Part shown: positions 5,372 to 52,213 of the stretch, one piece after another | Numbering within the stretch: the stretch's first letter is position 1 | Layout of the letters: every line of letters starts with the position of its first letter | Sequence record: OM858838 | DNA: 64,000 nt | From: Shigella phage B2 | Direction: 5' to 3' (one strand) | Translations under genes and position numbers: made by a program | The notes under the pieces: model-generated | The model's input: the letters and a program-made list of their open reading frames with translations, nothing else | Databases searched by the model: none | Told to the model about the DNA's origin: nothing

Positions 5372-5434
5372 CCGCCAGTAGTACTTGGATAGCCCTTCAA
5401 TGAGGGGCTATTCCAGTTATCACTGGAGGTAATC

Positions 5435-13775: not shown

Positions 13776-14762
13776 ATGAAGCTAACCAATAATACTAACA
13801 TCGCTTTATCGATGGCTGTCTGGTTAGCGGCTGATGATTATGACTACGTTGAGAAACCAAACTATATCTCTGCCACCAGCTTACTTAAGAGCGTTCGTCA
13901 ATTAGTCTTGATGAAGCGTCTCACAGGCTCTCTGGAGGCTTCTGCTGATGTATCTGGACGAATCTCTAACCGTATGGGTTCAGCCTTCCACGATGCGATT
14001 GAGAGAGCTTGGAAGGAGAAATACAAACAGTCCTTAACTGACCTTGGTTATCCAAAAAGAGTCATTGAAGCTGTGCGTATTAATCCAACAGAGGAAGAAC
14101 TCAATGATGATGTGATTCCTGTCTGGTTAGAACAGAGAGTTGAGAAGGATTTCCGAGGATGGACTATCGGAGGTAAGTTCGACATGGTTATGGAGTACAG
14201 ACTGAGAGATGTTAAATCTACCAGTGTGTTCACATACCAGAACAAATCCAATGATGAAAAGTTTCGTATGCAGGGAAGTATTTACCGTTGGCTTAACCCA
14301 GAGAAAATCAAGCATGACCACATGTACATTGATTATCTCTTCGTAGATTGGTCTGCCAATCAAGCCAAAGGTAATAAAGATTACCCTCAACAGAAGATTT
14401 TAGAATATCCATTGCAGTTGAAATCTGTGCATGAAACGGAGCAGTATGTTGCCTCCAAGCTAACTGCTTTGGAAAGGTACATGGATACCCCTGAACCAGA
14501 ACTTCCTGAGTGTACAGAAGAAGACTTATGGCGCTCTGACCCTGTCTATAAGTATTACAAAAACCCTGCCTCTACAGGCCGTAGTACAAAGAACTTTGAT
14601 AACTTACACGATGCTAATCTGAGGTTTGCTGAAGATGGTGCAGTAGGTATTGTTGTCACTGTTCCGGGTGAAGTTAAAGCGTGTAAATACTGTCCAGTAT
14701 TTGCTATCTGTACTCAGAAAGATAAGTATTTGGCTTCAGGGGAACTTAACGTTTCAGATTGA
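13776..14762 (+). CDS. putative PD-(D/E)xK nuclease with C-terminal Cx(n)CxxCx5C iron-sulfur cluster (Cas4/RecB-nuclease-like)
   Basis: C-terminal Cys cluster PEC…ACKYCPVFAIC; central acidic/lysine motifs; location in replication module. Confidence 0.5.
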   Translation: MKLTNNTNIALSMAVWLAADDYDYVEKPNYISATSLLKSVRQLVLMKRLTGSLEASADVSGRISNRMGSAFHDAIERAWKEKYKQSLTDLGYPKRVIEAVRINPTEEELNDDVIPVWLEQRVEKDFRGWTIGGKFDMVMEYRLRDVKSTSVFTYQNKSNDEKFRMQGSIYRWLNPEKIKHDHMYIDYLFVDWSANQAKGNKDYPQQKILEYPLQLKSVHETEQYVASKLTALERYMDTPEPELPECTEEDLWRSDPVYKYYKNPASTGRSTKNFDNLHDANLRFAEDGAVGIVVTVPGEVKACKYCPVFAICTQKDKYLASGELNVSD

Positions 14763-14770
14763 GGAACCCA

Positions 14771-16933
14771 ATGTTTGACTTATCATCTGCCCAATATCAT
14801 CCAATCTCTGAACAGATTGTAGATGTGTTAACAAAGAAAACTCTAAACAGTAACCGATTGTTCTTCAGAGTTCAGGTTAGTTACTTTTTAGCTAAGATGG
14901 CATCCAGTATGAGATGTACTCTGGATACCTTAGATAGAGGAAAGATTCCTGTTAATGTATATGCCTTGAACTTAGCTCCGTCAGGCTCAGGCAAAGGGCA
15001 TTCCACTAACATCATTGAAGGCCAGTTCTTGAACCAGTTTAAGAACACATTCCTTCAAGATACTTTCCCCTATATAGCTCAACAGAATCTTGTTGATATA
15101 GCTGCTAAAAGAGCCAATAAAAATGGAACAGACCCTGCTGATGAGTTAGTGAAACTGGAGAAGGAATTTGCTTCTACAGGTGCATTAGCATTCTCATTTG
15201 ATAGTGGTACTGTGCCTGCTCTCAAGCAGTTACGTCACAAGCTGTTACTGGCTAATGCAGGTGCTGCATCCTTCGAGTGTGATGAGTTAGGTAAGAACCT
15301 TATCGCTAACATGGACTTGTTAACAGCTTTTTTAGAGTTGTATGACCAAGGACTTATCAAACAGAAGTTAACCAAGAATACAGCAGACTCCCAACGTGCT
15401 GAGGAATTGGAGGGTAAAACTCCAACCAATATGCTCCTGTTTGGTACTCCAAGTAGTTTGCTGAATGGCGGTAAGGAAGAAGACGAATTCTATGCATTAC
15501 TGGAAACAGGATATGCTAGACGTTGTTTGTTTGGTTATTCTCGTAAAGAGGATTTCCAACAAGAAATGTCTCCAGAACAAGTCTTCGATATGCTGACTGA
15601 CTCTACATCCAACTCAACCATTGCTCAGTTATCCCAGCACTTTGGTATGTTGGCTGATGCCATAAAGTACAATCAGCAAATCATGGTTAACAGGGATGTG
15701 AGTATCAAACTCATTGCCTACAAACTCCATTGTGAACAGATAGCTGACAAGCTGCCTGACCATGAGGAGATTCGTAAAGCTGAATTACGTCATAGATATT
15801 TCAAAGCACTGAAGCTTGCAGGTGTGTATGCATTTGTGGATGAAACTCCTGAAGTAACTGAAGCCCAGCTTTTATCTGCAATCAAACTCGTAGAAGAGTC
15901 TGGTGAAGCATTCAATAGAATTCTCAGCCGTGAGAAGAACTATGTGAAGTTAGCCAATTATATTGCAGAAGTAGGTAAGGAAGTTACCCACGTAGATTTG
16001 GTAGAGGATTTACCATTCTATAAAGGTAGCAATGCGCAGAAGCAAGAGCTAATGAACTTAGCTATCGCATATGGCTACAAGCACCACATCATCATCAAGA
16101 AAACATTTGTTGATGGCATTGAGTTCTTTAAGGGTGAGGCTCTTAAGCCAACAGACTTAAGTAAACTCATTGCTTCTTATAGTGGGCATGTAGCTTATAA
16201 CTATCTCTCTGAACCAATCTCCTTTAGTAATCTTCAGGCTTTATGCCAGATGGATGATATGCATTGGATTAATCATGCATTGATTAAAGGTGCTGATGGA
16301 GATGGGCATAGAGATGGTTCAAACATTCTGCCGGGCTTTAACGTTATCGTCATCGATGTAGATGAAGGAACATCATTAGATGAAGTTAGAGTATTGATGA
16401 AAGATTATACATATTTCATTCATACAACTAAACGTCATCAAACAGAAGGATATGGCGATAGATTCAGGCTTATCATGCCTATCAATTATCATCTTAAACT
16501 TGATGAAAATGAATTCAGAGAGTTTATGAATAACGTCTATGAATGGCTTCCATTTAAAGTCGATGAACAAACTAGTCAACGTTGTCGTAAGTGGGCAACA
16601 CATCAAGGAATCACATTCTCCAATGAAGGAGAGATTCTAGATGCTTTAGCTTTCATTCCGAAAACAAGTAAGAATGATGAGTTGAAGAAGACTATGGTTG
16701 ATTTAGGTAATTTAGATAATCTTGAACGTTGGTTTGCTCAGCGAATGGGTAACGGAAATCGCAACAATCAACTGCTGAAATTTGCTATGATGTTGGCAGA
16801 TACTGGATTGGATTATCAAGGAATCTTGGATAAGGTTCTTGGCTTCAATGCCAAACTGGATAGCGGACTTCCAGAGATTGAAATTCACAGTACTATCATG
16901 CGCAGCGTTAGCAAGAAACTTTCCGAGAAGTAA
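14771..16933 (+). CDS. putative primase-like replication protein with N-terminal P-loop domain
   Basis: P-loop APSGSGKGHS; C-terminal IDVDEG and downstream His motifs resembling archaeo-eukaryotic primase motifs; GAGG SD before ATG 14771. Confidence 0.5.
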   Translation: MFDLSSAQYHPISEQIVDVLTKKTLNSNRLFFRVQVSYFLAKMASSMRCTLDTLDRGKIPVNVYALNLAPSGSGKGHSTNIIEGQFLNQFKNTFLQDTFPYIAQQNLVDIAAKRANKNGTDPADELVKLEKEFASTGALAFSFDSGTVPALKQLRHKLLLANAGAASFECDELGKNLIANMDLLTAFLELYDQGLIKQKLTKNTADSQRAEELEGKTPTNMLLFGTPSSLLNGGKEEDEFYALLETGYARRCLFGYSRKEDFQQEMSPEQVFDMLTDSTSNSTIAQLSQHFGMLADAIKYNQQIMVNRDVSIKLIAYKLHCEQIADKLPDHEEIRKAELRHRYFKALKLAGVYAFVDETPEVTEAQLLSAIKLVEESGEAFNRILSREKNYVKLANYIAEVGKEVTHVDLVEDLPFYKGSNAQKQELMNLAIAYGYKHHIIIKKTFVDGIEFFKGEALKPTDLSKLIASYSGHVAYNYLSEPISFSNLQALCQMDDMHWINHALIKGADGDGHRDGSNILPGFNVIVIDVDEGTSLDEVRVLMKDYTYFIHTTKRHQTEGYGDRFRLIMPINYHLKLDENEFREFMNNVYEWLPFKVDEQTSQRCRKWATHQGITFSNEGEILDALAFIPKTSKNDELKKTMVDLGNLDNLERWFAQRMGNGNRNNQLLKFAMMLADTGLDYQGILDKVLGFNAKLDSGLPEIEIHSTIMRSVSKKLSEK

Positions 16934-16952: not shown

Positions 16953-17681
16953 ATGTCAGAACCAATTAAAGACCTAGTCTTAATTGCAGGTGCATCATCA
17001 TCTGGTAAATCAGCTTCATTGATGAATCTGGAAGACCATCCGGGAGTGATGTATCTAAACTGTGAATCTGGTAAACGTCTGCCATTTCCAAACAAGTTTG
17101 ATAAGTATGTAATCACTGACCCACTACAAGTGTATGAAGCATTTGATGCTGCTGAGACTATGCCTCACATTCATACCATTGTAGTTGATTCAATTACATT
17201 CCTGATGGATATGTTTGAATCCCTTTATGTTATTGGTTCAGCCAATACCATGAAAGGTTGGGCTGATTACAATCAGTTCTTTAAGAATCTGATGCAGGTT
17301 AAGGTAGCCAAATCTACCAAACGAGTAATCTTTACTGCTCATACTCTGTCTCAGTTAAATGAGAATGAGATGATTGTAGAAACCAAAGTTCCAGTGAAAG
17401 GTGCACTGAAGAACCAAGGTATTGAAGCTTACTTTACCTGTATTGTTTATGCCAAGAAGATGCAGCTTAAGCATCTGAAGCCTTATGAGAATGACCTATT
17501 GGTTATTACTCCAGAGGAAGAAATCCTTGGCTATAAGCATGTCTTCCAAACTTGTATCACCAAAGATACTGTCCATGAACGTATTCGTTCTCCACGCTTT
17601 ATGTGGAAGATGAATGAAAGTTTCATCGATAACGATGTAACTAAAGTACTTGGTCGTATCAAAGAATTTTACGAAGAATAA
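16953..17681 (+). CDS. P-loop ATPase, possibly RecA/Sak4-like recombination protein
   Basis: Walker A GASSSGKS near N-terminus, VVDSITFL Walker-B-like; AGGAG SD before ATG 16953 (track ORF start 16839 overlaps upstream gene). Confidence 0.5.
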   Translation: MSEPIKDLVLIAGASSSGKSASLMNLEDHPGVMYLNCESGKRLPFPNKFDKYVITDPLQVYEAFDAAETMPHIHTIVVDSITFLMDMFESLYVIGSANTMKGWADYNQFFKNLMQVKVAKSTKRVIFTAHTLSQLNENEMIVETKVPVKGALKNQGIEAYFTCIVYAKKMQLKHLKPYENDLLVITPEEEILGYKHVFQTCITKDTVHERIRSPRFMWKMNESFIDNDVTKVLGRIKEFYEE

Positions 17682-17690
17682 GGAACAAAT

Positions 17691-18434
17691 ATGTCTCTGT
17701 TAAAAAATCTGGAAACTAAAGCTGGCATCGAAGGTGAAAAGGATATTCTGGGCGGTGATGGTGCTCTTGAATCAGGTCTGTATGACCTGACTATCAAAGT
17801 AGCATACGTCACTACCTCTAGTGGTGGTGCATTAGCTTTGAATACCGTATTTGACTATAACGGTAAAGAAGTACGTCAGCAGTTCTGGATGACTTCTGGT
17901 ACTGCCAAAGGTGGCAAGAACACCTATATCGATAAGAGAACTGGTAAAGAACAGTATCTCCCAGGATTCCTGACAGCTAATAGCTTGGCTCTCCTGACTG
18001 TTGGTAAGGAAATTAGCCAACTGGAGTTGGAAGAGAAAACCATCAAACTGTATGACTTTGATGCCAAAGGTGAAGTACCTACTAAAGTACAGGTATTCAC
18101 TGAACTGACTGGTCAAACAATCACTGCTGGTGTACAGAAACAGACTGTTGATAAGAACATTGATTCTGGTCAGGTAGATGGGCAAGGTCAGAAAATCTAT
18201 GTCCCATCTGGGGAGACTCGTGATATTAACGAAGTTGTTAAGTTCTTCCGTGCAGATGATGGTCTGACTGTTCCTGAAATTGAAGCTCAGGTAACTGAAG
18301 CTAAATTTAAAAATGATTGGGATGCCAAGTATACTGGTAAAACCATCAATAAAGCCAAAGGCTCTAAAGATGGTGTAACAGCAGGTGCTCCATCAGCAGG
18401 AGCTAAACCTACTAAATCCCTGTTTGCTAAATAA
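17691..18434 (+). CDS. abundant protein, candidate single-stranded DNA-binding protein
   Basis: strongly optimised codon usage, position at end of replication module as for the SSB of N4-like phages; C-terminal PTKSLFAK tail. Confidence 0.55.
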   Translation: MSLLKNLETKAGIEGEKDILGGDGALESGLYDLTIKVAYVTTSSGGALALNTVFDYNGKEVRQQFWMTSGTAKGGKNTYIDKRTGKEQYLPGFLTANSLALLTVGKEISQLELEEKTIKLYDFDAKGEVPTKVQVFTELTGQTITAGVQKQTVDKNIDSGQVDGQGQKIYVPSGETRDINEVVKFFRADDGLTVPEIEAQVTEAKFKNDWDAKYTGKTINKAKGSKDGVTAGAPSAGAKPTKSLFAK

Positions 18435-18442
18435 GGATTTGT

Positions 18443-18688
18443 ATGGATTCTACAATTAGTTCAAATGACCATTTGCCTGTAATAATCATTAAGATTAAAG
18501 AGATTAAAACTTTCAAAGGTACATTTACAATTATTCCTGAGAATGAAGAACAAACTGAGTTCGAAGTTCGTCCAGAATATATTGCTAAATTTGCACCGAA
18601 GGTTGGAGGCTACTATATAGTCTATGCAGGAGGGTACGAATCTTACTCAGAAGAAGACCCTACTCCACCTAAAGTTGAAATCCAATAA
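18443..18688 (+). CDS. hypothetical protein
   Basis: ORF with AAGGA SD. Confidence 0.5.
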   Translation: MDSTISSNDHLPVIIIKIKEIKTFKGTFTIIPENEEQTEFEVRPEYIAKFAPKVGGYYIVYAGGYESYSEEDPTPPKVEIQ

Positions 18689-18695
18689 AAAATAA

Positions 18696-18717
18696 GCCCT
18701 CATTAGAGGGCTTTTTT
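18696..18717 (+). terminator. intrinsic terminator
   Basis: stem gccctc/gagggc with T6 run directly after stop. Confidence 0.6.
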
Positions 18718-18731
18718 AATAGGTAAATGGT

Positions 18732-18965
18732 ATGACAATCAAAGTAAGGATGTTCCAAAATGTTTCTGGTACAGCTTACCAGAAAGTGTCATATAAAATC
18801 ATCCAAGGGATTGTAGAAAATCCACATGACAAAGAGATTGATGTTCTTTTAACTGGATGGGAACATGCTTGTTCTAAATCATTAATGAGAACACAAATCT
18901 TACAGCAACTAGAATGGTTTAAGTCTCAGGGATACACTGTCATTTTTAATGACAAGAGACTATAA
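18732..18965 (+). CDS. hypothetical protein
   Basis: ORF after terminator, own SD. Confidence 0.5.
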   Translation: MTIKVRMFQNVSGTAYQKVSYKIIQGIVENPHDKEIDVLLTGWEHACSKSLMRTQILQQLEWFKSQGYTVIFNDKRL

Positions 18966-18967
18966 CC

Positions 18968-19351
18968 ATGTACAAACTTATCGCTCCCCTCCGAGTACAT
19001 AAATCCAAAGCCAAACTATTAAGTCTCAATCTTAATGCTTATAGAAATGAGCATCATATGAGTCTTAATAATGCTAAGGCTAACTTTAAAAAGATTATGG
19101 AAGAACAGATTAGAGCACTACCTAAGTTCTCTAAGGTGCATCTTACCTATGTCTTTTATCCCGGAACCAAACATCTAAGTGATGTTGGTAATGCTTGTAC
19201 CATAGTTGATAAGTTTTTTGCTGATGCTTTAGTCGAACTAGGGAAACTCCCAGATGACAATTATCTTTACATTCCTGAGTTGGTTTTTCGGATGGGGTCT
19301 ATAGACCGCGAAAACCCTCGTGTAGAAATCTTTATTAAGGAAATTGATTAG
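18968..19351 (+). CDS. hypothetical protein (weak resemblance to RusA-type resolvase)
   Basis: 127-aa ORF; D…D..K..DAL pattern only. Confidence 0.4.
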   Translation: MYKLIAPLRVHKSKAKLLSLNLNAYRNEHHMSLNNAKANFKKIMEEQIRALPKFSKVHLTYVFYPGTKHLSDVGNACTIVDKFFADALVELGKLPDDNYLYIPELVFRMGSIDRENPRVEIFIKEID

Positions 19352-19352
19352 T

Positions 19353-19799
19353 ATGCAAATCACTCTGAACCAAGACGAAATCATGGAAGCCCTGAAAGAT
19401 TATGCTTTCCGTGTAATCAATGTAGCTCCGGGCAATGATATCACTATCGACCTGAAAGCTGGTCGTGGTGAGAATGGCTATTCAGCCACTCTGGAAATCA
19501 CTCCACAGCGTTTAACGGAATCACATGACCCAAAGGGTCCTAATGTACGTGCAAGCTCCTCAGAAGGCTCTGTAGGCTTACGTACAGAAGTAATTGAACG
19601 TACAGTTGTTGAGCCAAGTAAGGGAATCCTGCGTGAGGTAGCTCCTGAACTTCCAGTTGAAGGTGAAACTGTAGTTGATACTGCTCCTACGGAGCCAGTG
19701 GACCCAGCAGCCCATCTGTCTGAAGAACAGGTTGATGCTGAAGTTGATGAATTCTTAGCTATCCAGAATCCTACCAAATCACTCTTCGCACGTAACTGA
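19353..19799 (+). CDS. hypothetical acidic protein sharing C-terminal PTKSLFA tail with 17691-18434 protein
   Basis: AAGGA SD, ATG at 19353; C-terminus …NPTKSLFARN. Confidence 0.55.
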   Translation: MQITLNQDEIMEALKDYAFRVINVAPGNDITIDLKAGRGENGYSATLEITPQRLTESHDPKGPNVRASSSEGSVGLRTEVIERTVVEPSKGILREVAPELPVEGETVVDTAPTEPVDPAAHLSEEQVDAEVDEFLAIQNPTKSLFARN

Positions 19800-19812: not shown

Positions 19813-19959
19813 ATGAAAGCACTTAAAGCTGCTTTCATTACTGCTCTCATAGTAGGGGTCTTCTTTGCATGGCCCCTAGTATTAACAGTAGCTGTGATAG
19901 CAGGTATATTCTGGTTCATCTATATGGCTCTTAACCAAACAGAAGAGGAAGACGAGTAA
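19813..19959 (+). CDS. small membrane protein (48 aa, not in ORF track)
   Basis: AAGGAG SD; single hydrophobic helix; TAATG coupling to next gene. Confidence 0.4.
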   Translation: MKALKAAFITALIVGVFFAWPLVLTVAVIAGIFWFIYMALNQTEEEDE

Positions 19960-20186
19960 TGTATATCTGGCTTTTAATTGGCTTAGCTGTATCCATTTAT
20001 GTAGTACATGGACCTAAGCTAGATAATGAAGAAGCAAAGAGAATCAGAAAGAATGTTAAATTAGCGTTCGAACGTGTGGCTCTATTCAGAGCTATTATGA
20101 TTCCTGCATATATATTTTGGATGTGTGTGTTCTCTTTGATATGGCCTCTGATGATTTACATCAGATTCTTCTATAAAGATAAATAA
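19959..20186 (+). CDS. small membrane protein
   Basis: two hydrophobic segments in 75-aa ORF. Confidence 0.5.
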   Translation: MYIWLLIGLAVSIYVVHGPKLDNEEAKRIRKNVKLAFERVALFRAIMIPAYIFWMCVFSLIWPLMIYIRFFYKDK

Positions 20187-20190: not shown

Positions 20191-20218
20191 AAGCCCCATC
20201 CTTGGGGCTTTTCTTTTA
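20191..20218. terminator. bidirectional intrinsic terminator between convergent + and - strand genes
   Basis: stem aagcccca/tggggctt flanked by A-run upstream and T-run downstream. Confidence 0.55.
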
Positions 20219-23200
20219 GTACAAACTCACCAGAGGGTGTACTGTAAGTCCATTCAATGCTGTACCCATCCCAACGTTATAACTCAGACTACCAGTTACT
20301 AAGTTGGCTTCAGTAATGTTAGGTAATCCAGATTCAACACTGTTACCAAACATCAGGAACAATGCTCTCAATGGATTCTCTCTAATCGTTCTCAGAATGA
20401 TTTTCTGGATACGAATCTTATAGTTCAGGAACCAAGTTAAACCAATAGCATCCAGATAGAATCTGGTACGACTTGGTAACACATCATAGTTCACGAACTC
20501 ATCCATCACTCTGTTAAGCGCACTGTCTTTATCCATTGGATTACTCTTACGAGTAGTCAAATGTTTATACAATGAATACTTAGCAACAAAGTCACCATAC
20601 TGGATTGAACGGTTCAGTAAGAAGTACACGTTACTATCTCTTGAAAGGGTAACTTCCTTAGCAACACGTTTAACACTATCTGGAATACCAGATGTGTATT
20701 CATCCATCTTATTAAGTAATTTATCTTTCAATGAATAGTTATCTTGCTGTCCTAAATCCTCTGCAATGGTAGGCAGTAAACCTGCTTTGATTAAATCAGC
20801 AACAGGGTTACGAGCCTGAGAATCTTTCAGTTCTGAAATCTTTCTCTGATATTCGTCAGCCATTTTAGGATTATGGTTTACAGCCAGATAGTGAGAATAC
20901 TCGTTAATCAGTTTCTCATTCTTTCTGTACTCCTCAGCAGCCAGTACAGCAGTAGACATATCCTTAGCCATAGTCACAGGGCTTACACCAACAGTAGCTA
21001 AGTGAACCATGTTAGAAACAATGTTCGCTGCTGATACAACTATTGAACGAACTACAATCCAATCCTTCATTTCCTTCACGAATTCCATCAGACCACGTTC
21101 ACCAAGTCTCAGATAGCGAGCAGCATTCTTACCTAAGAAGGTTTCAGCAATGCTGGTGAAAGCTTTCTGGAACTCTTTAGAGTAACCAGTCTGACCAGTC
21201 CACATATTCAGTACAGAAGGTTCACGATAACCAAATGCGTTATTCAGTAAATCCTTACGTACTTTAATCTTACCATCAGGCCAAATCTTCTTAGCTTGTT
21301 CCTTCATCTCAATAGGCATCAGTTCATAAATCTCTTTTAACTGATGGTCTGTAGAGTTCTCATCCATAGTAATGTATTGGTATGCCCTGCCTTCTCTGGC
21401 ATCCTTCACATACATTTCATGGAGTCTCTGGAGCAACATTTCATTGTATCTGGCTGCCTGAATCTCCTCAGCAATACGACCTTCCCAAGCACCGATTACC
21501 TTAGTGAAATCATTATCTACATCCAAATGTGCTTCTTTGTTAGCTCTAGGCATCTGATATGAGTAACCCATAATTGAACCAGCACGATTCAATACAGGTT
21601 GCATATATGAGTTATTGCCAGTAGGCATAGGAGCATTTGCATCAAATAAATTATCAATACTGCTTCTCTTACGAGTAGATAAATTATTCTTCTCAGTAGC
21701 TCTCCATATACCCGGAGTCATAGCACCATTCACAGTTCTACCTGTAATTGGGTTTACTCCACCTACGGTGTTTTGCAGGGTACTCATTACACCAGCAATC
21801 CAACGAGGTTCACCACCATTGTTTGAATGGTAGTAATACATTGGTTCCTTGTTGGTATCCTGTGGGTCACGAGCAACCTGAGCACCTCTGGTATACCCTC
21901 TACGAGATAAGCTTGGTTCATCTTTAATAGATGCAATAATCACTTTCTTGTTAGGGTCTGACAGAGTAGGAGTAAATCCTTTAATCCCAGCTAGTGCTTG
22001 GTTTTGACCAGACTTAGCTAACTCTGCACCCTGCAAGCTTGAATAATATTTGAGAGTGAAAGTCATCCCATTATTATTTGGTTCACCTTTAGTCATCTCT
22101 CTATTAATCAAATTACTTACAGTAGCAATATCAGTCTGAGATAACTCTTTCAGTGCTGCCAGAGAAGCCATAGTATCAACCAATTGAGTAACAGTATTAA
22201 CTGTTGCATCATTAGGTCTAACTCTGCCAGTACCAATTAAACGAGCAATAGCTGCTGCGTTAGGTAACTGATAAGCCAGTGGACTAACTCCATGAACCAT
22301 TTGTTTAGCTAATCCATATGCAGACTTAATATAGAAAGGAGCATTCTGTGCACCTGCTGTCTGCAATTGAGATTCAATAGAAGCAATCTCTTTAGCCAGT
22401 TCAGTTGGATTGGTTAAGAGTTCATTCAGTCGTGCCAAGTCATATCCATTGGCAAACAGATAAGCCATATCAGTATTAGCAACTACTCTCTGAATAGCTT
22501 CTTTCTCTGTTTGGTTCAGGGATACAAATGTACTCTCAATCATACCCGGAACCATCTCACGAATAATCTGACGTGCTCTATCAGCAGCCATATTCTTCTG
22601 AGTCAGTAAGGTATGAATGGTGCTATTGGTTTCGTTAGAACCAATGAACTCATTAATCAGTTCAGCAACAGTACCTAACTTGCCATTCTGGTGAATGGTC
22701 ATATAAATGTTAGTGATAGCATCACGTACATCCTGAGCATCTTGGTCATTGAATACTGCTGAACCAGCAGTGATACCAAATGCTACAGACTTAGGTACTT
22801 TCTTCTCTACCTTGAGTAACTGTCTACGGATAGTGTGACCAAAGGATTTGAGTTTATCCTGAGTAGTATCAGTGATTTTCTCTGCACCTCTAACCAATCT
22901 ACCAAACAGATTGTCTCTGGCTTCACTATCAACATGACTAATATTCTTAGCCAGTTTAGTTAAGCGAGAAGCAACGTCAGTATTACCCAAAGACTTAGTA
23001 GCCAAACCCGATAACCAAGTAAGAATGGCATTGGTTAAATCACCAATACGTTCTCTCAGAGTTGTAGCTGGAGTCTGTCTGGTACGCTTAACACTAATCT
23101 GAGAAAGTTTATTTCTCAGTTGTTCATTGGTTTCTGCCAGTGCAATGAAGTTAGCCAGTCTATTAGTACGACCAGTAGCATCAGTAGTCACAGCAGTGTT

Positions 23201-26200
23201 ACCAAATACAGCATCATATCTTTGTTTAGCTAATGCCATTTCACTAGCTGAACGATTATTAGGGTCAGTTAAGAAGTCTTCTACTTTCAAGGTATCTCTG
23301 GCTTGTGCATACAAACTACGTGCAACCAGAACACTTGGAGAAAAGTTCTCTAAACCATACTTCATAGAAACTTGCAGCATCTTGAATACAAATGCTTCTT
23401 TCTCACTCATGTTAAAACCATGAGCAATCAATGCATTTGGAGAGTTATCAATCTCTGGGTCGATACTATCTACCAGAAGTTTTTCCTGATAATGGTCTAA
23501 ACCAGAGATTTGCTGACCAGTATTCTTAATCACTTTAATGATATTTGACTGGAGATAATCCAGTGTATCAGTCAAATGATTCACATGGTCTTGCGTAGCT
23601 TTACCAGCATCCAGTTTATTAAACAGAGTTTCTGCATCTAATCTATTGATGTTATTAGCATTGGTTTGAGCATAGCTAGTTTCATCATTAGATTTAACCG
23701 GATTAGTAGAGTCAGTTAAAGCAACTGTATGCCCTAACAGACGTGACCAGTAAGAGGTAACATCTGGATTAGAGCCAATAGCAAACAGGCGCTTAATAGA
23801 ATCAGCTAACTGTTTGAGTACATTGGTAACAGTCCCAGCAATAGTCTTCTGAGTCATTGCATCAATCATTCTTGGGTTAACTAATCCCCATGCAATAAAC
23901 TCAGCAGTAGCTTGAGACATATTACCAGAAGCGATATGAGTATTAATCAGGTCTACTACAGCATCAGTTTCTGGATTGGTGCTTGAATATTCATTCACAA
24001 ACTTATTCATCAATCCTTCAATTGAAGCTACTTCTACTCTCTGAGCAGGAGTAATTGCTTCTGGATTGCTGTAATAGTTATGAACAGTATCAGCAGTAGC
24101 AGCATGAATTAACTCATGCATTACTGTCTCAATAGACTGAGAACCAATATAGATGTTCTGGCCTTGTGTAAGACCCAAGAACGTGTCATTAAACTCAACC
24201 TTAGTATCAGGTGTCATTTCCTGTTGAACGCCTGAGAGAGCTTCTGGTGAGCCTACATACACATTAATATCATTAGGGATAGAATTGATAATCTTATCCA
24301 GAATGAAACCAGTGATTCTATTCTGGCGAGAAGGCAGAGATTTAGCTGCCTCTCTTACAGCAGCAACCACATCACCTTTAGCCAGAACTTTAACACCTTC
24401 ATGACCTTTTACAGTTCTACCATTTCTATCCAGAGCCTCAGTCATCTGACGAGTAGGAGGAATGGTTACTCTACCTTTAGGTAGAGATACAGAATCCATA
24501 GTAGGTAATTCAGTATTGGCTACTAACTGTTCCAGAGGAGTTCTGGTATCAGTTGCTTCTCCATCAGTCTGTTTACCATTCTTAACATTGAATGGAATAT
24601 TGGCACCAGTCATCTGGTTAATGGAGGTAATAGCCTCACCACCTAACAGACCTTGTTTAATAGCAGTCTGAGTAGCAGCTTCTCTCTTAAGCAGAGTAGT
24701 GAATGCTTCAACCACTTCTGGACTAGTAGGTGCATTAGTTTCATCAGCACCAATCATTTCCATAATTCCACGGAAAGACTGTTCCAGACGAACATCTGCT
24801 TCTGGACCTAATTCCTCTGCCAGATTCACTCCATCCATTGCTTGCTCAAAACGGTTAGTGAAATCTTGCAGTAAATCGAATTCATTCCAGCTTTGCAGAA
24901 CACCTTGGTTAATAGCCTGAGAACCAGTATCCAAATGAGATACAGCATTGATGTAGCCATCGAATACGTTCAGAGCATTGTTAGGATTGATATCACGAGC
25001 AATAGCCTGCATAGCTGCTTCTACAGACTGAACCAGTAAAGGCATTACACGAGTACCCGGTTCAGTATAAGTAGGCATATCTACACCGAAGGTAGAACGA
25101 CGCATCTTACCATCCAGTTCTCTACGTCCTCTGGATTCCATTCTGTGTACGTCAGATGGAACACGCCCTTCCTCACTCAGAAGAATACCTTCATTCAGCT
25201 TTTCAACATCTAAGTTGTTAGCAGTAAACCAAGAATTGAAGATTGGCATTGAACCAATCAAGTAATTCTTAATGTCGTTGTACTGCTGCTGAGATAGAGA
25301 TTCATATTTAGATAACTTACCTTCTTTACGAAGTTCAGTTTCTAATCTCTCTACTTCTTTATTCCAACGAGACATGAATACTTCATGCATTACAGCAGCA
25401 GCATAGACCATCATCTTGCCACGATTAACTACAGTACCAAATTCATTAGCAATGGATTCGTTTACTGCTGCACCAATACCAATCTTGATGTTCTGAGTAA
25501 TAGCTTCGATTTGTTCACCGTCAAATTCAAACATAGTCACATCCTGACCTAAGTTGATAGGTGAACCAATCTGAACCCAAGAACCATTTCTGAATACCCG
25601 AGCAGTAGTCAGTTCATTAGTTGTATTAGTTAAGTCATTGATGTGTTCAATAGCAGCATCACGTTCTTCCTGATTAGTAGCTGCATCAACTGCTCTCAAT
25701 GCTTCTGTGATTGCTTCGTAATATCCATTAGCAATACCCATAGCAATCTTTCTATTGATTGCAGTAGCACCGCCTGAATAAACAGTTACTGTTACTGGAT
25801 TCTTAAGTAAACCTCGACCAATCTGAATTGGATGGTCTACATTTTCACCTTCAACAATATTCACATCACCAATCAGTTTGGATGCAGCAAGAGTAACCCT
25901 CATCTGATTCTTCAGACGTTCAATTTCACGCATTTCTTTTTGCTGGAATTGACGTGGTTTATTCTTCATTGCAGCAATTCGGTTAGGAATATTTCTAACT
26001 GAATCCATCATTCTATTGATGTATTGCTGACTATCAGCAGCAGCAGTCTTATACAGGTCTAAGAATCCCGGTTCTTCAGCAGCATCATTATACAGACGGT
26101 CAGACTGCCCATAGAAGAAACCGCCCTTCTCCAATTTATTCAGTAAGTCCTGGTTCACATCTTTCAAACCAAGCTGAACAATGGAGTTAAATGGTCCATT

Positions 26201-29200
26201 AGTAACACCATCAAGCTCCAGCATTACATGAGTCTGGAATGAGGTCTTACCTTGTTCTACAGCCAGTTCATATTGAGCCTGTGCATACAGAGCATGGAGA
26301 GTCTTAGTCTTCTCCTTACCTGCTTTAACAGCCTGCAACAAAGTCTCAGCATCACTATCACTGATGGCATCCTGATTCTCAGCAGCTTTAAGGATATCGA
26401 TAGCATCTCTGAACAGACCAGTACTGATAGCTTTATTCAGTCTATCTCTGGCTGTTTCAGAAGACAGCTTATCAACAGCAATATCTAAGCCCTGAGCAAT
26501 TGCATAATCAAGGAATGCACCATGCTGAGGGTTATTCAGTTCAATGGTAGATGGTTCAACAGTAACCAGTTCACGATGTAATTTAGCTGACTGAGGATTC
26601 AGGTCACCAGAGTTAAGCATCATACGGAAGTTACTGATTACGTTATAACCAAAGTAAACAGGAGTGGTAGCCAAAGGTAATCCAGCTTCAACCATTCTAG
26701 TTAAACCATTAACCAGAGTATTTATATCTCTTTCAATGGTACGGTTAGAACCCTGAATAGATTTCAGGTGAGCACCGTTAGTATTCTCTTCTGACTGAAT
26801 GCCTAACATTCTACCAATCCACTGAGTACCTAACTTATCAAGCATCAGGTCATGCAGACCCATGTTAATGAAGTGAGGTTGTTTGCTAGCTTTGTTACGA
26901 GCAGCAAGCATCTTCTCAGGGATATCCTGACCACCACCATTCTTAACTTTAGTGCTTTGACCTTTTGGTGGAGTACCAAAGTATGCACCTGCTCTTTCTC
27001 TCTGAGGATTAGTCAGTTGACCTAACAGGTCATTAGAATTCTGCATCAATTCTACTAAACGAGTAGCAGCAGGAGACTCTTCATTCATACGAATGAATAC
27101 ACGAGAGTTCTTCATGTTTGAGTCATTTACTTTAGTAGAACCAACAGCAGCTAATTCAGAGTTTTTAACAACTGATTCCTGAACCAGATTAGCATTAATC
27201 ATTACGTTCAATACTTCAGATGCCATTGCTTTAGACACAGCATCACGTACAGAGATAGGTGCATTAGGGTCTGCATTGATACCTAATACTCCAAAGATTT
27301 CTCTGCTTAAATCATCAATAACATTCTGACGGTCAGTACCAACGTTACGCAGTAAGTCAGTCTGTTCTACAGTTGGCCTAGTCTTGTTATCTAAACCAAG
27401 AATATCCATTACTGTACGGTCATCATTGAATGTAGTTTCAGATGCATTACGTACAAACCACTGCATCATTCCAGCAGTCATTGCTTCAATTACTGGCTGC
27501 GGTAAGAAGTAAACATTCTCACCATTGATGTTTCTAACTTCATCAAAGTACTCAACAGGATAAGTTTCCCAGAAGATACGCTGACCTTCAGGAGTTAATT
27601 TACCCCAAGACTGAATCAGAGATTGTTCAATAGCAGGGACTAAACCAGCAAACTGACGAAGTACATTTACTTCTTTCTCAGTTACTTGTTCTGGTTTGAT
27701 ATAACCTTTAAACAGATTCTGAATCTGAGTAATAGGATTAGAACCATTAGTAAAGATGCTATTAAGTCTCCCAGAGAAATTAGAAGTTCTCAGGAAAGCT
27801 GAACGTTTACCGGTAGGTTTAAACCATTTCTTAACTTGGTTTGTAGCTTGATATTCTTTATCTACATCAGAAGTAGACTTAGCATCAGAGCGTATTGTCT
27901 CTGCTTGCAGTCCATTCAGAATGTCATAGTTAACACCTTTCTCTGAACCAAGGTCTAATTGAGACTCATCCATCAGGTCAGTTTCTACATCAGTAGGTTT
28001 TTCCTGTAACTGGATATCAGATTCTACAGTATCTGGTTTCTCAAACAGTTCACCCTGTACAGGTTCAGTACGTACAGCTTCCTCAGACGCTACTGGCTGA
28101 GTTATTTCAGGCTGTACTGGTGTTTGTACCTCTTCCTGAGAAGTCTGCTCAGAAGTCTCTACAGGAGCTTCTACAGTAGTCTGCTGAGATACAGGTTGAG
28201 GGAAAGTATTCCTGACGTGGTTCAGGAAATCAGTACGTGCCTGAGAAGGTGTAGCCCATACTTCACGAGTACTACGTAAACTGAAGATATGCCCATCTGG
28301 TGTCATAACGTAAGGTACATTAGTGTCACCATAATTAAAGGAAGACAGAACATCCTGTTTACCAGTAACTGTGTCCTCTCCAGGAATAATAGTAGTTTTA
28401 CCACCATTAACCGGAACGGCACGAATACCCCCCATGTCTTTACCAATAGCAATATAGTCTTTGCCATTATAGGTAAAGTACTGACCTAACTGCATATACA
28501 GTGCCTGCTGCTGTCCAGTAAATTCAGCAGATTTCATCTCAGGACCGGCAGGGATACCACTAGAAGTAGTCTGCTGAGGAGCTGGTTTAGTTTCTTTTTT
28601 AACAGGTGCAGATTCCTGAGTCTGGTTGTTCACTTCTTCAGAAGCAACAGGAGCAGACTGTGCAGGGATATCTACAGGTTTACCATCTACCAGTTGACTG
28701 GTAAGGGTATGAGCCAGTCTTACTGCATCAGCATCATTACGAATCTCTTGGATTAATCCTTTAGAACGTACCGGATGGTACGTCATTGGATTTCCATCGA
28801 GAGACAGGTATGGCTGACCAGTAGTAGGATTAATTACTTCTACAGGTTGATTTCCAGTAAAGTTCTGAGCAGCTTGGTCAAAGGCAGCAGCCTTAGTTTC
28901 CATATGTTCAGCAAAGCGATTCAGGTGGTCTAACAGACCCTGAGCACGAGCAGTATCACCTAATGATAATGCACGGAAGATACCTTGCTGATATTGCTGG
29001 ATACCAATAAAGCCATCCGAACCTTCACGTACATCTTTACCTACTTGGCTCATAGCCTTACCAGTAGCAGAGATGACCTTAAGTTTATCCACATCCTGCT
29101 GACTTAAACCAAGAGTATCAGCAGAGTTAACTAAACGGTCAGCTACATCTGGAGTAATAGAAGATGCATCTAAGTTCATCTGAGCCAGAACAGATTTAAC

Positions 29201-31441
29201 ATTCTTCTGAACTTCAGGAGATTTGTAAGTCTCTGGAGTAATCTCAGAAGGTAATGATTCCATGACTTTAGTCATTTCATCAGGAGTCAGTTTAAATCCT
29301 TCAGCAGTAGTCTTAACTGCCTGTACATCAGGATGATTCAGTACAGCATTAATATTATCAATAGCAGTCTGATACTGAGCTTTCTGGTCTTCTGGAGCAG
29401 CATCCATCTGTGCCTGAATCTGAGGTAATGCTTCTTCATATGCAGAGATAACACTGTTACCAACAGTAGCTAAATCTCTACGAGAAGCTTCATCTAGATT
29501 ACGTTCTTTAATGGCACGAGAGATTCTCAGAATAGAATCAGGAGAACTGATTTCTTCTTCTGGAATAGCTTTGAATACTTCTTTGGCAGCAGGTTCAGTA
29601 ACAGCATCTACAGCTTTAGTAGTTACAGTTGGTTCTACTGGCGCTTCAGTATTAGTTTGTGGGGCAGCTTGTTTAACTGATTCATTGGCAGCAGATACAG
29701 TATTTCTAAAGTCTTGTGCTCTGCTTTCAGTTCTACGAGTCTGTCTTGCATCAAATGCTGTACGACCTTGTTGAACTCCTTCTTGGATTGCTCTAGGTGT
29801 CTCACTGATAGCTGAACCAACAGCACCCATACCCGCACCAGCAATAGCAGATTCAGCAACGTTTGAACCAATACCCTCAATGAGGGATTGAGATTCGTCA
29901 GCAGAGCTACGTACCCCGAGATTAGAAGCGAACTGACCAGAAGCGCCCTGTAATGCTTCCTCAACAGTCTCTTTAGCAGCATTCTGTGAAACCCTTGAAG
30001 ATGCAGCCAGTAATCCTTTACCTTCCAGTAAAGATGGAGTTAACAGACGTGATTCAAAGGGAGCAGCAACCTTACCAGTTAATGCACCTAAAGTACCTGC
30101 CACAGCAGAAGTAACATTACCTGCTTGAGTACGTACCTGACTTCTAGCCTGAGATGGTGTAGCACCTTCAGCAATAAGGTCACGATACATTGGTGATTTT
30201 TCAGCTAACTGAGCATCAGTTAATTTATCAATCTCATCCAGTGACTGTTGAGCATTTGAACCAGCTTCTTGGAAACCAACGTAACCAATAAATGCTCTTT
30301 CAGCAGCATCCTGTAGACGCTTTCTACCAAACTCAGTAGCAGCTAATTTAGTAGCAAAGTCCTCACCATACTCTTGAGCCAATTGCTTCAAAGCACCACG
30401 AGTAGCTAACTTACCTACGATACCACCAGTCAGTAAGTCTGGAGCAGATTCAGCAATCAGAGTAGTTAATGCACCTGGTGAAGTACCATACTGTTCAGCA
30501 GTATTAACGAACTGACGTAACTGTTCCTTAGCACCAGCTACTAATGGATTATCACCTTTAGCAATATCAGCAGCTTCTCTTGCTGCACCGCCTTGTTCAA
30601 AGCGTTGCTTATTGGCTTCGATAACAGATTGTTCATATTGAACAGCAGGAGAATACTGAGAACGCTGTTCATCAACGAATTCTTTTAATGGCTTATCAAT
30701 ACCTGCTTGGTCTAACAGAGTAGGTTGCCCTACTTGGTCTTCTTGACCAGTAACATTAGCAATTAAATCCTGAGCATTCTGTAATGCTAAGTTACCTAAA
30801 CTAGTAGCAAATCTTGCAGTATTACCTGCCCATACTTGGGCAGCATTACCAATGTCTGAAAGTTCCATAGGAGCATTTTCAAACTGGTCTGTATTAGCTT
30901 GAGCAATATTTAATGCAAGTTTGTCTCTAGCCGCTTGAGGACCATACTTCTGCTGTAAAGCAGAGATAGGCATATCTTTTAAATCAGCAAGATATTGGTC
31001 ATTTGGATTAGTCTGTGCAGCTTGATTAGGAGCTACATAGTTAGGATGACTTGGGTCAAAAGGACCAGTACCACCAAATTCAGGAGATACTTGAGGATTA
31101 ATCATCCTACGATAGAAAGGCTTAGTTGCTGCAATAGCATCATAGTTAGCCTGCATATCAGGAGTGGTTGGTTGAGTCTCAGGAATATTAAAATTATTAA
31201 TATTCTGACCAGTCAACATTGCCTGCATCTGTTCACGAGTATATTTAGGACCAGATTCAGCCAGACGAATAGCTTCCTGTCCTCTCTGATATTCAGGAGA
31301 ACCTACAGGGAAATCTGTTTCTACTCCGGGTACTGGAGCACCCATCTCTACTTGTTTCTGCTGAGTGGCTTGATTTAGTTGTTGTGTTTTTTGTAAATCA
31401 ACTCCAGCTAATTGTTGTTCTTTTTCAAATCCGGTAGCCAT
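20216..31441 (-). CDS. giant virion RNA polymerase (N4 vRNAP-like), 3741 aa
   Basis: T7-like RNAP motifs: A (MLELDG, D1744), B (R1876-x3-K1880-x7-Y1888-SG), C (VFDG, D2161); Y-to-D spacing of 273 residues equals that I recall for N4 mini-vRNAP; position downstream of structural genes. Confidence 0.85.
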   Translation of the reverse strand: MATGFEKEQQLAGVDLQKTQQLNQATQQKQVEMGAPVPGVETDFPVGSPEYQRGQEAIRLAESGPKYTREQMQAMLTGQNINNFNIPETQPTTPDMQANYDAIAATKPFYRRMINPQVSPEFGGTGPFDPSHPNYVAPNQAAQTNPNDQYLADLKDMPISALQQKYGPQAARDKLALNIAQANTDQFENAPMELSDIGNAAQVWAGNTARFATSLGNLALQNAQDLIANVTGQEDQVGQPTLLDQAGIDKPLKEFVDEQRSQYSPAVQYEQSVIEANKQRFEQGGAAREAADIAKGDNPLVAGAKEQLRQFVNTAEQYGTSPGALTTLIAESAPDLLTGGIVGKLATRGALKQLAQEYGEDFATKLAATEFGRKRLQDAAERAFIGYVGFQEAGSNAQQSLDEIDKLTDAQLAEKSPMYRDLIAEGATPSQARSQVRTQAGNVTSAVAGTLGALTGKVAAPFESRLLTPSLLEGKGLLAASSRVSQNAAKETVEEALQGASGQFASNLGVRSSADESQSLIEGIGSNVAESAIAGAGMGAVGSAISETPRAIQEGVQQGRTAFDARQTRRTESRAQDFRNTVSAANESVKQAAPQTNTEAPVEPTVTTKAVDAVTEPAAKEVFKAIPEEEISSPDSILRISRAIKERNLDEASRRDLATVGNSVISAYEEALPQIQAQMDAAPEDQKAQYQTAIDNINAVLNHPDVQAVKTTAEGFKLTPDEMTKVMESLPSEITPETYKSPEVQKNVKSVLAQMNLDASSITPDVADRLVNSADTLGLSQQDVDKLKVISATGKAMSQVGKDVREGSDGFIGIQQYQQGIFRALSLGDTARAQGLLDHLNRFAEHMETKAAAFDQAAQNFTGNQPVEVINPTTGQPYLSLDGNPMTYHPVRSKGLIQEIRNDADAVRLAHTLTSQLVDGKPVDIPAQSAPVASEEVNNQTQESAPVKKETKPAPQQTTSSGIPAGPEMKSAEFTGQQQALYMQLGQYFTYNGKDYIAIGKDMGGIRAVPVNGGKTTIIPGEDTVTGKQDVLSSFNYGDTNVPYVMTPDGHIFSLRSTREVWATPSQARTDFLNHVRNTFPQPVSQQTTVEAPVETSEQTSQEEVQTPVQPEITQPVASEEAVRTEPVQGELFEKPDTVESDIQLQEKPTDVETDLMDESQLDLGSEKGVNYDILNGLQAETIRSDAKSTSDVDKEYQATNQVKKWFKPTGKRSAFLRTSNFSGRLNSIFTNGSNPITQIQNLFKGYIKPEQVTEKEVNVLRQFAGLVPAIEQSLIQSWGKLTPEGQRIFWETYPVEYFDEVRNINGENVYFLPQPVIEAMTAGMMQWFVRNASETTFNDDRTVMDILGLDNKTRPTVEQTDLLRNVGTDRQNVIDDLSREIFGVLGINADPNAPISVRDAVSKAMASEVLNVMINANLVQESVVKNSELAAVGSTKVNDSNMKNSRVFIRMNEESPAATRLVELMQNSNDLLGQLTNPQRERAGAYFGTPPKGQSTKVKNGGGQDIPEKMLAARNKASKQPHFINMGLHDLMLDKLGTQWIGRMLGIQSEENTNGAHLKSIQGSNRTIERDINTLVNGLTRMVEAGLPLATTPVYFGYNVISNFRMMLNSGDLNPQSAKLHRELVTVEPSTIELNNPQHGAFLDYAIAQGLDIAVDKLSSETARDRLNKAISTGLFRDAIDILKAAENQDAISDSDAETLLQAVKAGKEKTKTLHALYAQAQYELAVEQGKTSFQTHVMLELDGVTNGPFNSIVQLGLKDVNQDLLNKLEKGGFFYGQSDRLYNDAAEEPGFLDLYKTAAADSQQYINRMMDSVRNIPNRIAAMKNKPRQFQQKEMREIERLKNQMRVTLAASKLIGDVNIVEGENVDHPIQIGRGLLKNPVTVTVYSGGATAINRKIAMGIANGYYEAITEALRAVDAATNQEERDAAIEHINDLTNTTNELTTARVFRNGSWVQIGSPINLGQDVTMFEFDGEQIEAITQNIKIGIGAAVNESIANEFGTVVNRGKMMVYAAAVMHEVFMSRWNKEVERLETELRKEGKLSKYESLSQQQYNDIKNYLIGSMPIFNSWFTANNLDVEKLNEGILLSEEGRVPSDVHRMESRGRRELDGKMRRSTFGVDMPTYTEPGTRVMPLLVQSVEAAMQAIARDINPNNALNVFDGYINAVSHLDTGSQAINQGVLQSWNEFDLLQDFTNRFEQAMDGVNLAEELGPEADVRLEQSFRGIMEMIGADETNAPTSPEVVEAFTTLLKREAATQTAIKQGLLGGEAITSINQMTGANIPFNVKNGKQTDGEATDTRTPLEQLVANTELPTMDSVSLPKGRVTIPPTRQMTEALDRNGRTVKGHEGVKVLAKGDVVAAVREAAKSLPSRQNRITGFILDKIINSIPNDINVYVGSPEALSGVQQEMTPDTKVEFNDTFLGLTQGQNIYIGSQSIETVMHELIHAATADTVHNYYSNPEAITPAQRVEVASIEGLMNKFVNEYSSTNPETDAVVDLINTHIASGNMSQATAEFIAWGLVNPRMIDAMTQKTIAGTVTNVLKQLADSIKRLFAIGSNPDVTSYWSRLLGHTVALTDSTNPVKSNDETSYAQTNANNINRLDAETLFNKLDAGKATQDHVNHLTDTLDYLQSNIIKVIKNTGQQISGLDHYQEKLLVDSIDPEIDNSPNALIAHGFNMSEKEAFVFKMLQVSMKYGLENFSPSVLVARSLYAQARDTLKVEDFLTDPNNRSASEMALAKQRYDAVFGNTAVTTDATGRTNRLANFIALAETNEQLRNKLSQISVKRTRQTPATTLRERIGDLTNAILTWLSGLATKSLGNTDVASRLTKLAKNISHVDSEARDNLFGRLVRGAEKITDTTQDKLKSFGHTIRRQLLKVEKKVPKSVAFGITAGSAVFNDQDAQDVRDAITNIYMTIHQNGKLGTVAELINEFIGSNETNSTIHTLLTQKNMAADRARQIIREMVPGMIESTFVSLNQTEKEAIQRVVANTDMAYLFANGYDLARLNELLTNPTELAKEIASIESQLQTAGAQNAPFYIKSAYGLAKQMVHGVSPLAYQLPNAAAIARLIGTGRVRPNDATVNTVTQLVDTMASLAALKELSQTDIATVSNLINREMTKGEPNNNGMTFTLKYYSSLQGAELAKSGQNQALAGIKGFTPTLSDPNKKVIIASIKDEPSLSRRGYTRGAQVARDPQDTNKEPMYYYHSNNGGEPRWIAGVMSTLQNTVGGVNPITGRTVNGAMTPGIWRATEKNNLSTRKRSSIDNLFDANAPMPTGNNSYMQPVLNRAGSIMGYSYQMPRANKEAHLDVDNDFTKVIGAWEGRIAEEIQAARYNEMLLQRLHEMYVKDAREGRAYQYITMDENSTDHQLKEIYELMPIEMKEQAKKIWPDGKIKVRKDLLNNAFGYREPSVLNMWTGQTGYSKEFQKAFTSIAETFLGKNAARYLRLGERGLMEFVKEMKDWIVVRSIVVSAANIVSNMVHLATVGVSPVTMAKDMSTAVLAAEEYRKNEKLINEYSHYLAVNHNPKMADEYQRKISELKDSQARNPVADLIKAGLLPTIAEDLGQQDNYSLKDKLLNKMDEYTSGIPDSVKRVAKEVTLSRDSNVYFLLNRSIQYGDFVAKYSLYKHLTTRKSNPMDKDSALNRVMDEFVNYDVLPSRTRFYLDAIGLTWFLNYKIRIQKIILRTIRENPLRALFLMFGNSVESGLPNITEANLVTGSLSYNVGMGTALNGLTVHPLVSLY

Positions 31442-41836: not shown

Positions 41837-41996
41837 TGCGGTTATCCCTCATTTACTTTGCAAGCAGTATATATGTTTTGGTCTAATTCTGTACTTAGTT
41901 TGCTTCCTCCCTTAAGAATTATCTAATCTTTTTAGATGTATCAGGGTATTCTGAGCACACTTCTTAGGAAGTAATTCTAATATTGGAGGCTTTCAA

Positions 41997-42661: not shown

Positions 42662-42665
42662 CTTC

Positions 42666-51929: not shown

Positions 51930-52103
51930 AGTTACTCCGAAGGGGTTTACAAATAGATTATCAGTACTATATAGTACTTTTCACAGAAAGTAGAAGATTC
52001 TTAAGTGAGAGGTGTATTAGAACGTAACGGACTCATTATCCAATCTACGTTCAGTTGTTAAGATTGCAGTCTTAATAACATTTGATGATACATCTCTCTC
52101 TTA

Positions 52104-52126: not shown

Positions 52127-52134
52127 AAAGTTTT

Positions 52135-52209: not shown

Positions 52210-52213
52210 ATTA

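Follow-up and report, generated by a model that had tools for sequence, protein, structure and literature searches.

The window analyzed here, a stretch of 64,000 nucleotides (nt) of Shigella phage B2 (sequence record OM858838), contains a gene for an SSB, a protein that binds single-stranded DNA (ssDNA), and, further along the same strand, a gene for an unrelated acidic protein, and the products of both genes carry the seven residues PTKSLFA close to their C termini. An earlier, sequence-only reading of the window took this peptide as a sign of a common docking partner and proposed that it contacts host RNA polymerase, as the C terminus of the SSB does in N4-like phages. The gene of the acidic protein lies between those of the SSB and the virion RNA polymerase, directly 3' of a gene for a Holliday-junction resolvase, as in related loci (Table 1). 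The region shares 99% identity with Salmonella phage vB_SenP_UTK0001 and ~97% with phage FSL SP-058; because the latter belongs to the genus Ithacavirus (subfamily Humphriesvirinae, family Schitoviridae), the source of the window is an N4-like phage. Loci that we compared with the window are labeled L001 to L055.

A tail common to two different proteins

The SSB open reading frame (ORF) ends ...SAGAKPTKSLFAK (that is, ...GAKPTKSLFAK), and the ORF of the acidic protein ends ...LAIQNPTKSLFARN (also given as ...IQNPTKSLFARN), its tail being PTKSLFARN. When the two proteins are compared by BLASTP, the sole alignment is PTKSLFA[K/R], in which 7/8 residues are identical, and the rest of the two sequences does not align. 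Among the 71 stop-to-stop ORFs of at least 100 amino acids (aa) in the window, the number of ORF pairs expected to have a common 7-mer within their last 12 residues is 2.3e-4 (5e-5 by simulation). The initial observation that two different proteins end in the same tail is confirmed: with ~2e-4 chance matches expected, the match is not due to chance. No third ORF with the terminal motif is present in the whole 64 kb, and in 46 related loci no real ORF outside the SSB and gp47/Bes2 families (the latter being that of the acidic protein, as described below) has the tail.

The seven tail codons read cct act aaa tcc ctg ttt gct in the SSB gene and cct acc aaa tca ctc ttc gca in the gene of the acidic protein. 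Synonymous third-position differences at 5/7 of these codons rule out that the tail was recently duplicated or converted at the DNA level and indicate that its identity is held by selection at the protein level, not by a recent DNA copy.

Homologs of both proteins have the same element. The pattern S[LIVM]F is found within the last 20 residues of 119/120 SSB homologs and 116/120 homologs of the acidic protein, as against 2/71 window ORFs, those two being the SSB and the acidic protein themselves. The sequence-only reading had named a lack of conservation in related phages as a result that would refute its proposal; we find conservation instead, and the view that the tail is a conserved functional element is supported. 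In general form, the motif consists of basic residues, S or K, L/I/V, F, and a small residue, and it ends a disordered linker. Nearly all homologs of the SSB and of the acidic protein have it, across phages that infect Enterobacteria, Pseudomonas, Vibrio, Acinetobacter, Rhizobium, and Ruegeria. Aligned homologs thus show the 7-mer of the window to be the local form of a motif conserved across the Schitoviridae.

The two tails also occur together in every genome examined. Both are present in all 40 of the IMG/VR loci that have an ORF for the second, acidic protein, out of 43 loci (no such ORF was detected in L014, L035, or L039), as well as in phages Jura, LIT1, Ab09, RHph_X3_15, Ruegeria V21, Vibrio JA-1, and Acinetobacter Ab2712 and in two Logan metagenome contigs; in the N4 record, the motif of the second protein is found only in the neighboring reading frame. 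In the Pseudomonas phages LIT1 and Ab09, the SSB and the second protein alike end in SLFS. Elsewhere, the residues that follow F are acidic in both tails: SSBs ending in KSLFED are paired with second proteins ending in GKSLFDQE or GKSLFDQD, and an SSB ending in KSSLFDD is paired with a second protein ending in KSSIFDVD.

The SSB, the gp47/Bes2 family, and their neighbors

The SSB matches phrog_743 over residues 1 to 247 (E value [E], 6.4e-75) and is homologous over its full length to N4 gp45 (N4SSB), with 38% identity; a weak match to the oligonucleotide-binding (OB)-fold SSB PrgE (E, 5e-4) was also obtained. In an AlphaFold2 model, a core spanning about residues 25 to 222 is predicted with a local distance difference test score (pLDDT) above 90, and residues 226 to 247 fall below 50. 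The linkers of SSB homologs are hypervariable, basic in 99% of cases, and composed largely of G (21%), A (20%), and K (18%). At the end of this linker, S243 and F245 are invariant across 53 aligned diverse homologs and L244 is at least 90% conserved; among 120 homologs, the tails read KPTKSLFAK, TSSLFKRS, TTSLFA, KSLFED, and the like, with SLF present in 97%.

This tail is the counterpart of the activating region of N4SSB, a protein of 265 aa that ends A-A-K259-S260-L261-F262-G263-K264-K265. Residues S260, K264, and K265 form this region in whole or in part, and its activity is separable from ssDNA binding (Miller et al. 1997, as cited in a later paper); as reviewed, the C-terminal residues of N4SSB are essential for late transcription, and the protein contacts the conserved C-terminal region of the beta' subunit of RNA polymerase. 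In Pseudomonas N4-like phages, too, late genes are transcribed by host RNA polymerase, from sigma70-like promoters. The window tail, KSLFAK against KSLFGKK in N4, retains the serine and one terminal lysine and misses the second lysine. The proposal that the SSB tail is a candidate for activating host RNA polymerase therefore agrees with N4 by homology. As the role of the N4SSB tail is already published, the SSB half of the tail idea is, in our assessment, a homology-based restatement of known N4 biology.

A second conserved peptide lies at the other end of the SSB: its N terminus (17691-17756), with the pattern MS[LI]L.NL.T..(I).E.D.LGG, is also conserved across the family and precedes a few residues (20 to 22) that are modeled with low confidence. 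This peptide could serve as a second interaction motif or as a cooperativity motif.

The acidic protein is, by sequence comparison, a homolog of N4 gp47, LIT1 gp66, and Ab09 gp61 (Bes2). It shares 39% identity with N4 gp47 and matches phrog_27655 (E, 6e-94), its ATG at 19353 agrees with the family N terminus MQITLNQ, and its N-terminal domain (N-domain) aligns with Ab09 gp61 in hhalign (E, 1.3e-5; probability, 81%). The family consensus of the N-domain is MQITLNQDEI...IDLKAGRGENG[FY]SATLDIVP, and the linker that follows is net acidic in 206/206 members and ranges from 40 to 136 aa (median, 82 aa). Across 57 diverse homologs, F145 in the tail is invariant and S143 is at least 90% conserved. A profile search with the N-domain against 1.84 billion proteins recovered 2065 cluster representatives (clustered at 50% identity), and the motif lies within the last 22 residues of 108/118 further representatives below 50% identity. 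Several homologs possess an additional, internal copy of the motif, and such doubling is typical of short linear motifs.

The name Bes2 comes from a preprint on phage Ab09 (bioRxiv 10.64898/2026.06.04.730250), in which the RuvC-like gp60 is called Bes1 and gp61 Bes2, the latter a broadly conserved factor with a phenotype directed against the defense systems Thoeris and CBASS (cyclic-oligonucleotide-based antiphage signaling system). Also by that account, Bes1 and Bes2 neither bind nor cleave signaling molecules, and Bes2, for which no mechanism is given, has no recognizable fold; the tail common to Bes2 and the SSB is not mentioned in the sections of the preprint consulted. The phenotype is reported for Ab09 gp61 only, and we found no other paper mentioning Bes2.

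In phage N4 itself, the tail of gp47 is hidden in the annotation. The N4 reference (L001, NC_008720; 11679-12120) has a run of four A residues (A4) where phage Jura (L048; 380-823) has five (A5), and the annotated C terminus of N4 gp47, frameshifted by the A4 run, reads ...KKYRKKRLKNQYKPNLLCLQV. The neighboring N4 frame and the intact Jura ORF both end ...EEEKEVQEEEAKEPVQAKPSLFAGLKR. Among other matched Enquatrovirus records, 13/14 differ in length from the 601-nt N4 segment and 6 of these are exactly 1 nt longer, with the A4/A5 difference itself shown by alignment for Jura only. This 1-nt homopolymer difference, which conceals the gp47 tail, explains why the link between the two tails was missed.

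Across nearly all loci, the gp47-family gene is located directly 3' of a gene for a Holliday-junction resolvase (in L038 and L040, it is instead directly 3' of the SSB gene). In the window, the stop codon of the RusA-like gene precedes the ATG of the second protein by 1 nt (junction gat tag t atg, frame +1), and no slippery run, as a programmed frameshift joining the two products might use, was seen at this junction. Phages of Rhizobium, Vibrio, and Ruegeria, along with 7 metagenomic representatives, have fusions in which a RusA-like domain is followed by the N-domain, linker, and tail. As the N-domain is conserved inside these fusions, it probably does more than hold the resolvase. The resolvase slot itself is occupied by three kinds of enzyme in the window and L001 to L055, namely, RusA-like, N4 gp46-type RuvC-like (phrog_159), and a 157-aa type (phrog_1770); the constancy of the flanking genes around these varied resolvases indicates nonorthologous replacement in a fixed slot.

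The remaining genes of the region are listed in Table 1. The Sak4-like gene is situated 5' of the SSB gene in 44/44 loci compared. In one lineage, the one in which the SSB ends in KSLFED, a dUTPase_2 gene (L053, 3303-3965; L054 and L055, 3316-3978) is inserted between the two and breaks their otherwise constant adjacency. The 81- and 77-aa ORFs lie within the stretch that the Ab09 preprint names as an anti-signaling gene-acquisition hotspot of N4-like phages (bioRxiv 10.64898/2026.06.04.730250). L053, L054, and Ruegeria V21 have similar small hydrophobic ORFs 3' of the gp47-family gene. No Pfam domain was detected in the SSB, the acidic protein, or the adjacent small ORFs, even at E values up to 10. 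Elsewhere in the window, local G+C content departs from a background of ~0.39 at 4001-6000 (0.466), 52001-56000 (0.43 to 0.45), and 60001-62000 (0.315).

Table 1. Genes and protein segments of the region, in window coordinates
Feature	Position	Strand	Remarks
Primase-like gene	14759-16933		
Sak4-like (AAA_24) annealing ATPase	16953-17681	+	PF13479, E 4e-11; phrog_124, E 2e-45; directly 5' of SSB gene
N4SSB-type ssDNA-binding protein, N4 gp45 homolog	17691-18434	+	247 aa; phrog_743
Disordered basic Gly/Ala/Lys-rich SSB linker, residues 226-239	18366-18407	+	pLDDT <50
SSB tail PTKSLFAK	18408-18431	+	Counterpart of N4SSB activating region KSLFGKK
Small ORFs, 81 and 77 aa	18443-18688 and 18732-18965		phrog_11049, phrog_20544 (uncharacterized families); no Pfam match
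RusA-like Holliday-junction resolvase	18968-19351	+	phrog_1682, E 2e-41
Acidic protein, N4 gp47/LIT1 gp66/Ab09 gp61 (Bes2) family	19353-19799	+	148 aa
Conserved N-domain of acidic protein, residues 1-52	19353-19508	+	Helix and beta-hairpin (predicted), invariant AGRG turn
Acidic disordered linker of acidic protein, residues 53-139	19509-19769	+	pLDDT 51-68
Tail PTKSLFARN of acidic protein	19770-19796	+	Terminal S-[LIV]-F
Two small hydrophobic membrane-type ORFs, 48 and 75 aa	19813-19959 and 19959-20186		Between gp47-family and virion RNA polymerase genes
Virion RNA polymerase	20216-31441	-	3741 aa

Candidate receptors of the two tails

The explanation that we tentatively favor is that the tails are two instances of one docking motif, whose receptor would be the beta' subunit of host RNA polymerase, for the SSB on grounds of homology to N4 and probably for the second protein also, at a site that is either shared or contested. 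Both proteins would then present a short docking motif on the tip of a C-terminal linker that is flexible and disordered. The SSB tail would contact the conserved C-terminal region of host beta' and thereby activate late promoters of the sigma70 type. The second protein would be a two-part adaptor, in which the N-domain binds a target of its own and is followed by the acidic linker and the tail, and this tail would dock on the same receptor as that of the SSB, most likely RNA polymerase. By sharing or competing for the SSB site, the second protein could tune SSB-dependent late transcription, and/or its tail could place the N-domain and the resolvase at an RNA polymerase hub. Use of one site by both proteins, as the sequence-only reading had suggested, is plausible.

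A common receptor, whatever its identity, is favored by the way in which the residues after F vary between the partners. When the flank after F is classed as acidic or nonacidic, 3 of 27 clade pairs are acidic in both proteins, 24 are nonacidic in both, and none are discordant (Fisher's exact test, P = 3.4e-4); this agreement in 27/27 pairs favors one receptor for both tails. Over the same 27 clades, the three residues after F covary by permutation (P = 0.037).

A deletion mutant of phage Ab09 offers a further view of the two tails. The mutant d57-61, a Cas3-generated deletion described in the preprint (bioRxiv 10.64898/2026.06.04.730250), is missing positions 41,096-42,899, so that the SSB gene loses its final 51 bp and gp61 is mostly gone, yet the phage grows well. 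In the Ab09 record (L047, HG962375), a 7-bp repeat, CCGGCAG, begins at 41096 and again at 42899, 1803 bp apart. Loss of the 1803 bp that separate the copies would keep the reading frame, and the SSB would then end ...GRPAPAAKQAAPASTGGSLFS, having gained the 15 terminal residues of Bes2, SLFS among them (...AAKQAAPASTGGSLFS); a literal deletion of 1804 bp would be out of frame. We infer from the repeat that d57-61 is a natural tail swap, in which the Bes2 tail is placed on the SSB. If this is right, the mutant attests to interchangeable tails and not to a dispensable one, and its vigorous growth fits both the interchangeability of the tails and the need for one on the SSB.

Several observations weigh against placing both tails on RNA polymerase or, in part, on any one receptor. 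RNA polymerase as the receptor of the second protein is purely our best guess; the phenotype of Bes2 against Thoeris and CBASS has no established link to RNA polymerase, and the association with resolvases points to recombination over transcription. The flip from a basic to an acidic flank is hard to square with a receptor that is described as highly conserved, and counterparts of N4 K264 and K265 are absent from many SSB tails. The covariation is itself limited: the acidic pairs represent just two or so independent lineages, no covariation is seen in the five residues that precede F (P = 0.30), and all nine tail positions taken jointly do not reach significance (P = 0.063), nor did an earlier test on 21 clades that scored strict L/I or flank (P = 0.22). 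Outside a few clades, only the core is common to both tails, with the SSB always having L-F and the second protein having I-F in about half of the clades, and some SSBs end in KKLFG whereas the partner has KSIFSKAS.

The linkage to resolvases, by position and by fusion, makes a receptor in recombination or replication a serious alternative to RNA polymerase, and the main one, even if we consider it unlikely on balance. In this scenario, the common receptor would be a phage protein, with the Sak4-like ATPase, the N4-type DNA polymerase, and the core of the SSB as candidates; the SSB tail would recruit it to coated ssDNA, and the second protein would, through its own copy of the tail, bring the resolvase to the same assembly. 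The direct placement of sak4 5' of ssb in all 44 loci agrees with such an arrangement, as does the position of the second protein, nearly always 3' of a resolvase of any of the three kinds and repeatedly fused to RusA-like ones. The charge flip after F, which occurs in both tails, would suit a phage partner that coevolves with them. Phage HK620 supplies a precedent, although its SSB ends in an acidic tail (NDYPPF) of unrelated sequence. In other systems, the tails of SSBs bind many partners, so that a recombination receptor is compatible with an RNA polymerase contact. Against this scenario stand the sole experimental data on the motif, those on N4 S260, K264, and K265, which concern the activation of transcription via beta'.

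A bolder version of the RNA polymerase reading, which we regard as doubtful, is that the gp47/Bes2 protein mimics the SSB tail, occupies the beta' site, and throttles or times the late genes such that the structural triggers of Thoeris and CBASS stay below threshold. If true, the phage would be evading immunity by adjusting its own late transcription, and the resolvase would be tied into the same hub.

It is rather improbable that the tails are similar and bind different partners, having each converged on a basic stretch with a Phe anchor, in which case the identity of the 7-mer in the window clade would be incidental. The L-F of the SSBs throughout, against I-F or V-F in the second proteins of many clades, is what separate partners would be expected to leave, and the same can be said of flanks that differ in most clades (the joint permutation P of 0.063) and of linkers that are oppositely charged, basic in the SSB and acidic in the second protein. 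Such independence is difficult to reconcile with the presence of both motifs in every lineage examined, with the full concordance of the acidic class after F (27/27), with the identical tails PTKSLFA in the window and SLFS in LIT1 and Ab09, and with a viable Ab09 deletion mutant that appears to run on a swapped tail.

Very unlikely, in our estimation, is that the tail is a variant of the motif that binds the host beta sliding clamp, by which the SSB and the resolvase adaptor would be tethered to clamps on replicating DNA. The bacterial clamp-binding consensus is reportedly QL[SD]LF; the invariant S-L-F of the tails would occupy its last three positions, in a disordered terminus (pLDDT <50), and the conservation of the motif across phages of alpha-, beta-, and gammaproteobacteria would be expected of a universal pocket. 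The first two positions of the consensus, Q1 and L2, are essentially never present (the tails read TKSLF, AKSLF, PASLF, KKKLF, or TSSLF), and we know of no requirement for the host clamp in N4 replication. Finally, a role of the tail as a C-terminal tag for degradation or turnover, as bacterial hydrophobic tags and the lack of a demonstrated partner for the second protein might suggest, or the lack of any function is scarcely credible, since N4 point mutants within the motif specifically lose transcription activation, up to ~15 residues often follow F, unlike in terminal degrons, some second-protein homologs have internal copies, and conservation across thousands of divergent sequences excludes chance.

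Comparison with known systems

The closest parallel is N4SSB (gp45), with which the window SSB shares full-length homology, a homologous tail that keeps the mutationally defined S260 and one of the two lysines, and a gene that follows a Sak4-like gene; the differences are that the window tail has one terminal lysine and not two and that many family members have none or are acidic after F. We found no structural follow-up since 1997 on how N4-type SSBs contact RNA polymerase. The second protein resembles Ab09 Bes2 (gp61), N4 gp47, and LIT1 gp66 in its combination of N-domain, acidic disordered linker, and SLF tail and in its location directly 3' of a resolvase gene, the resolvase of the window being RusA-like whereas that of Ab09 (Bes1) is RuvC-like. 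What is new is the presence, in the Bes2/gp47 family, of the same motif as in the activating region of the SSB. As such, the motif ties the contact between N4-type SSBs and RNA polymerase to the mechanism of Bes2 and gives a concrete, testable handle on the latter.

In phage T7, the SSB (gp2.5) and the helicase-primase (gp4) have similar, swappable C-terminal tails that dock on the complex of T7 DNA polymerase and thioredoxin, as reported by the Richardson laboratory. The likeness lies in similar C-terminal tails on an SSB and on another phage protein unrelated to it; those of T7 are acidic, with Phe as the last residue, whereas those described here are basic or neutral in the main and continue for 1 to ~15 residues after Phe. 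In phage T4, the gp43 polymerase, gp33, and gp55 possess a common C-terminal hydrophobic peptide that binds the sliding clamp and couples late transcription to replication. N4-like phages differ in that the SSB itself is the activator and in that, to our knowledge, they have no phage clamp.

A third comparison is with the bacterial SSB tip (DDDIPF), a hub that likewise combines an OB-type core, a disordered linker, and a short terminal peptide that recruits partners. In Escherichia coli, this tip is acidic and is recognized through the carboxylate of its terminal Phe, whereas the linker and tail of the N4 type are basic and show no sequence relationship to it; acidic residues before a terminal aromatic residue, by which acidic SSB tips are identified, are absent from the SSB tail of the window. 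If the two tails do share a receptor, they would define a new, non-acidic hub for interactions of SSB tails in a large family of phages, with more than 2000 clusters of the second protein at 50% identity.

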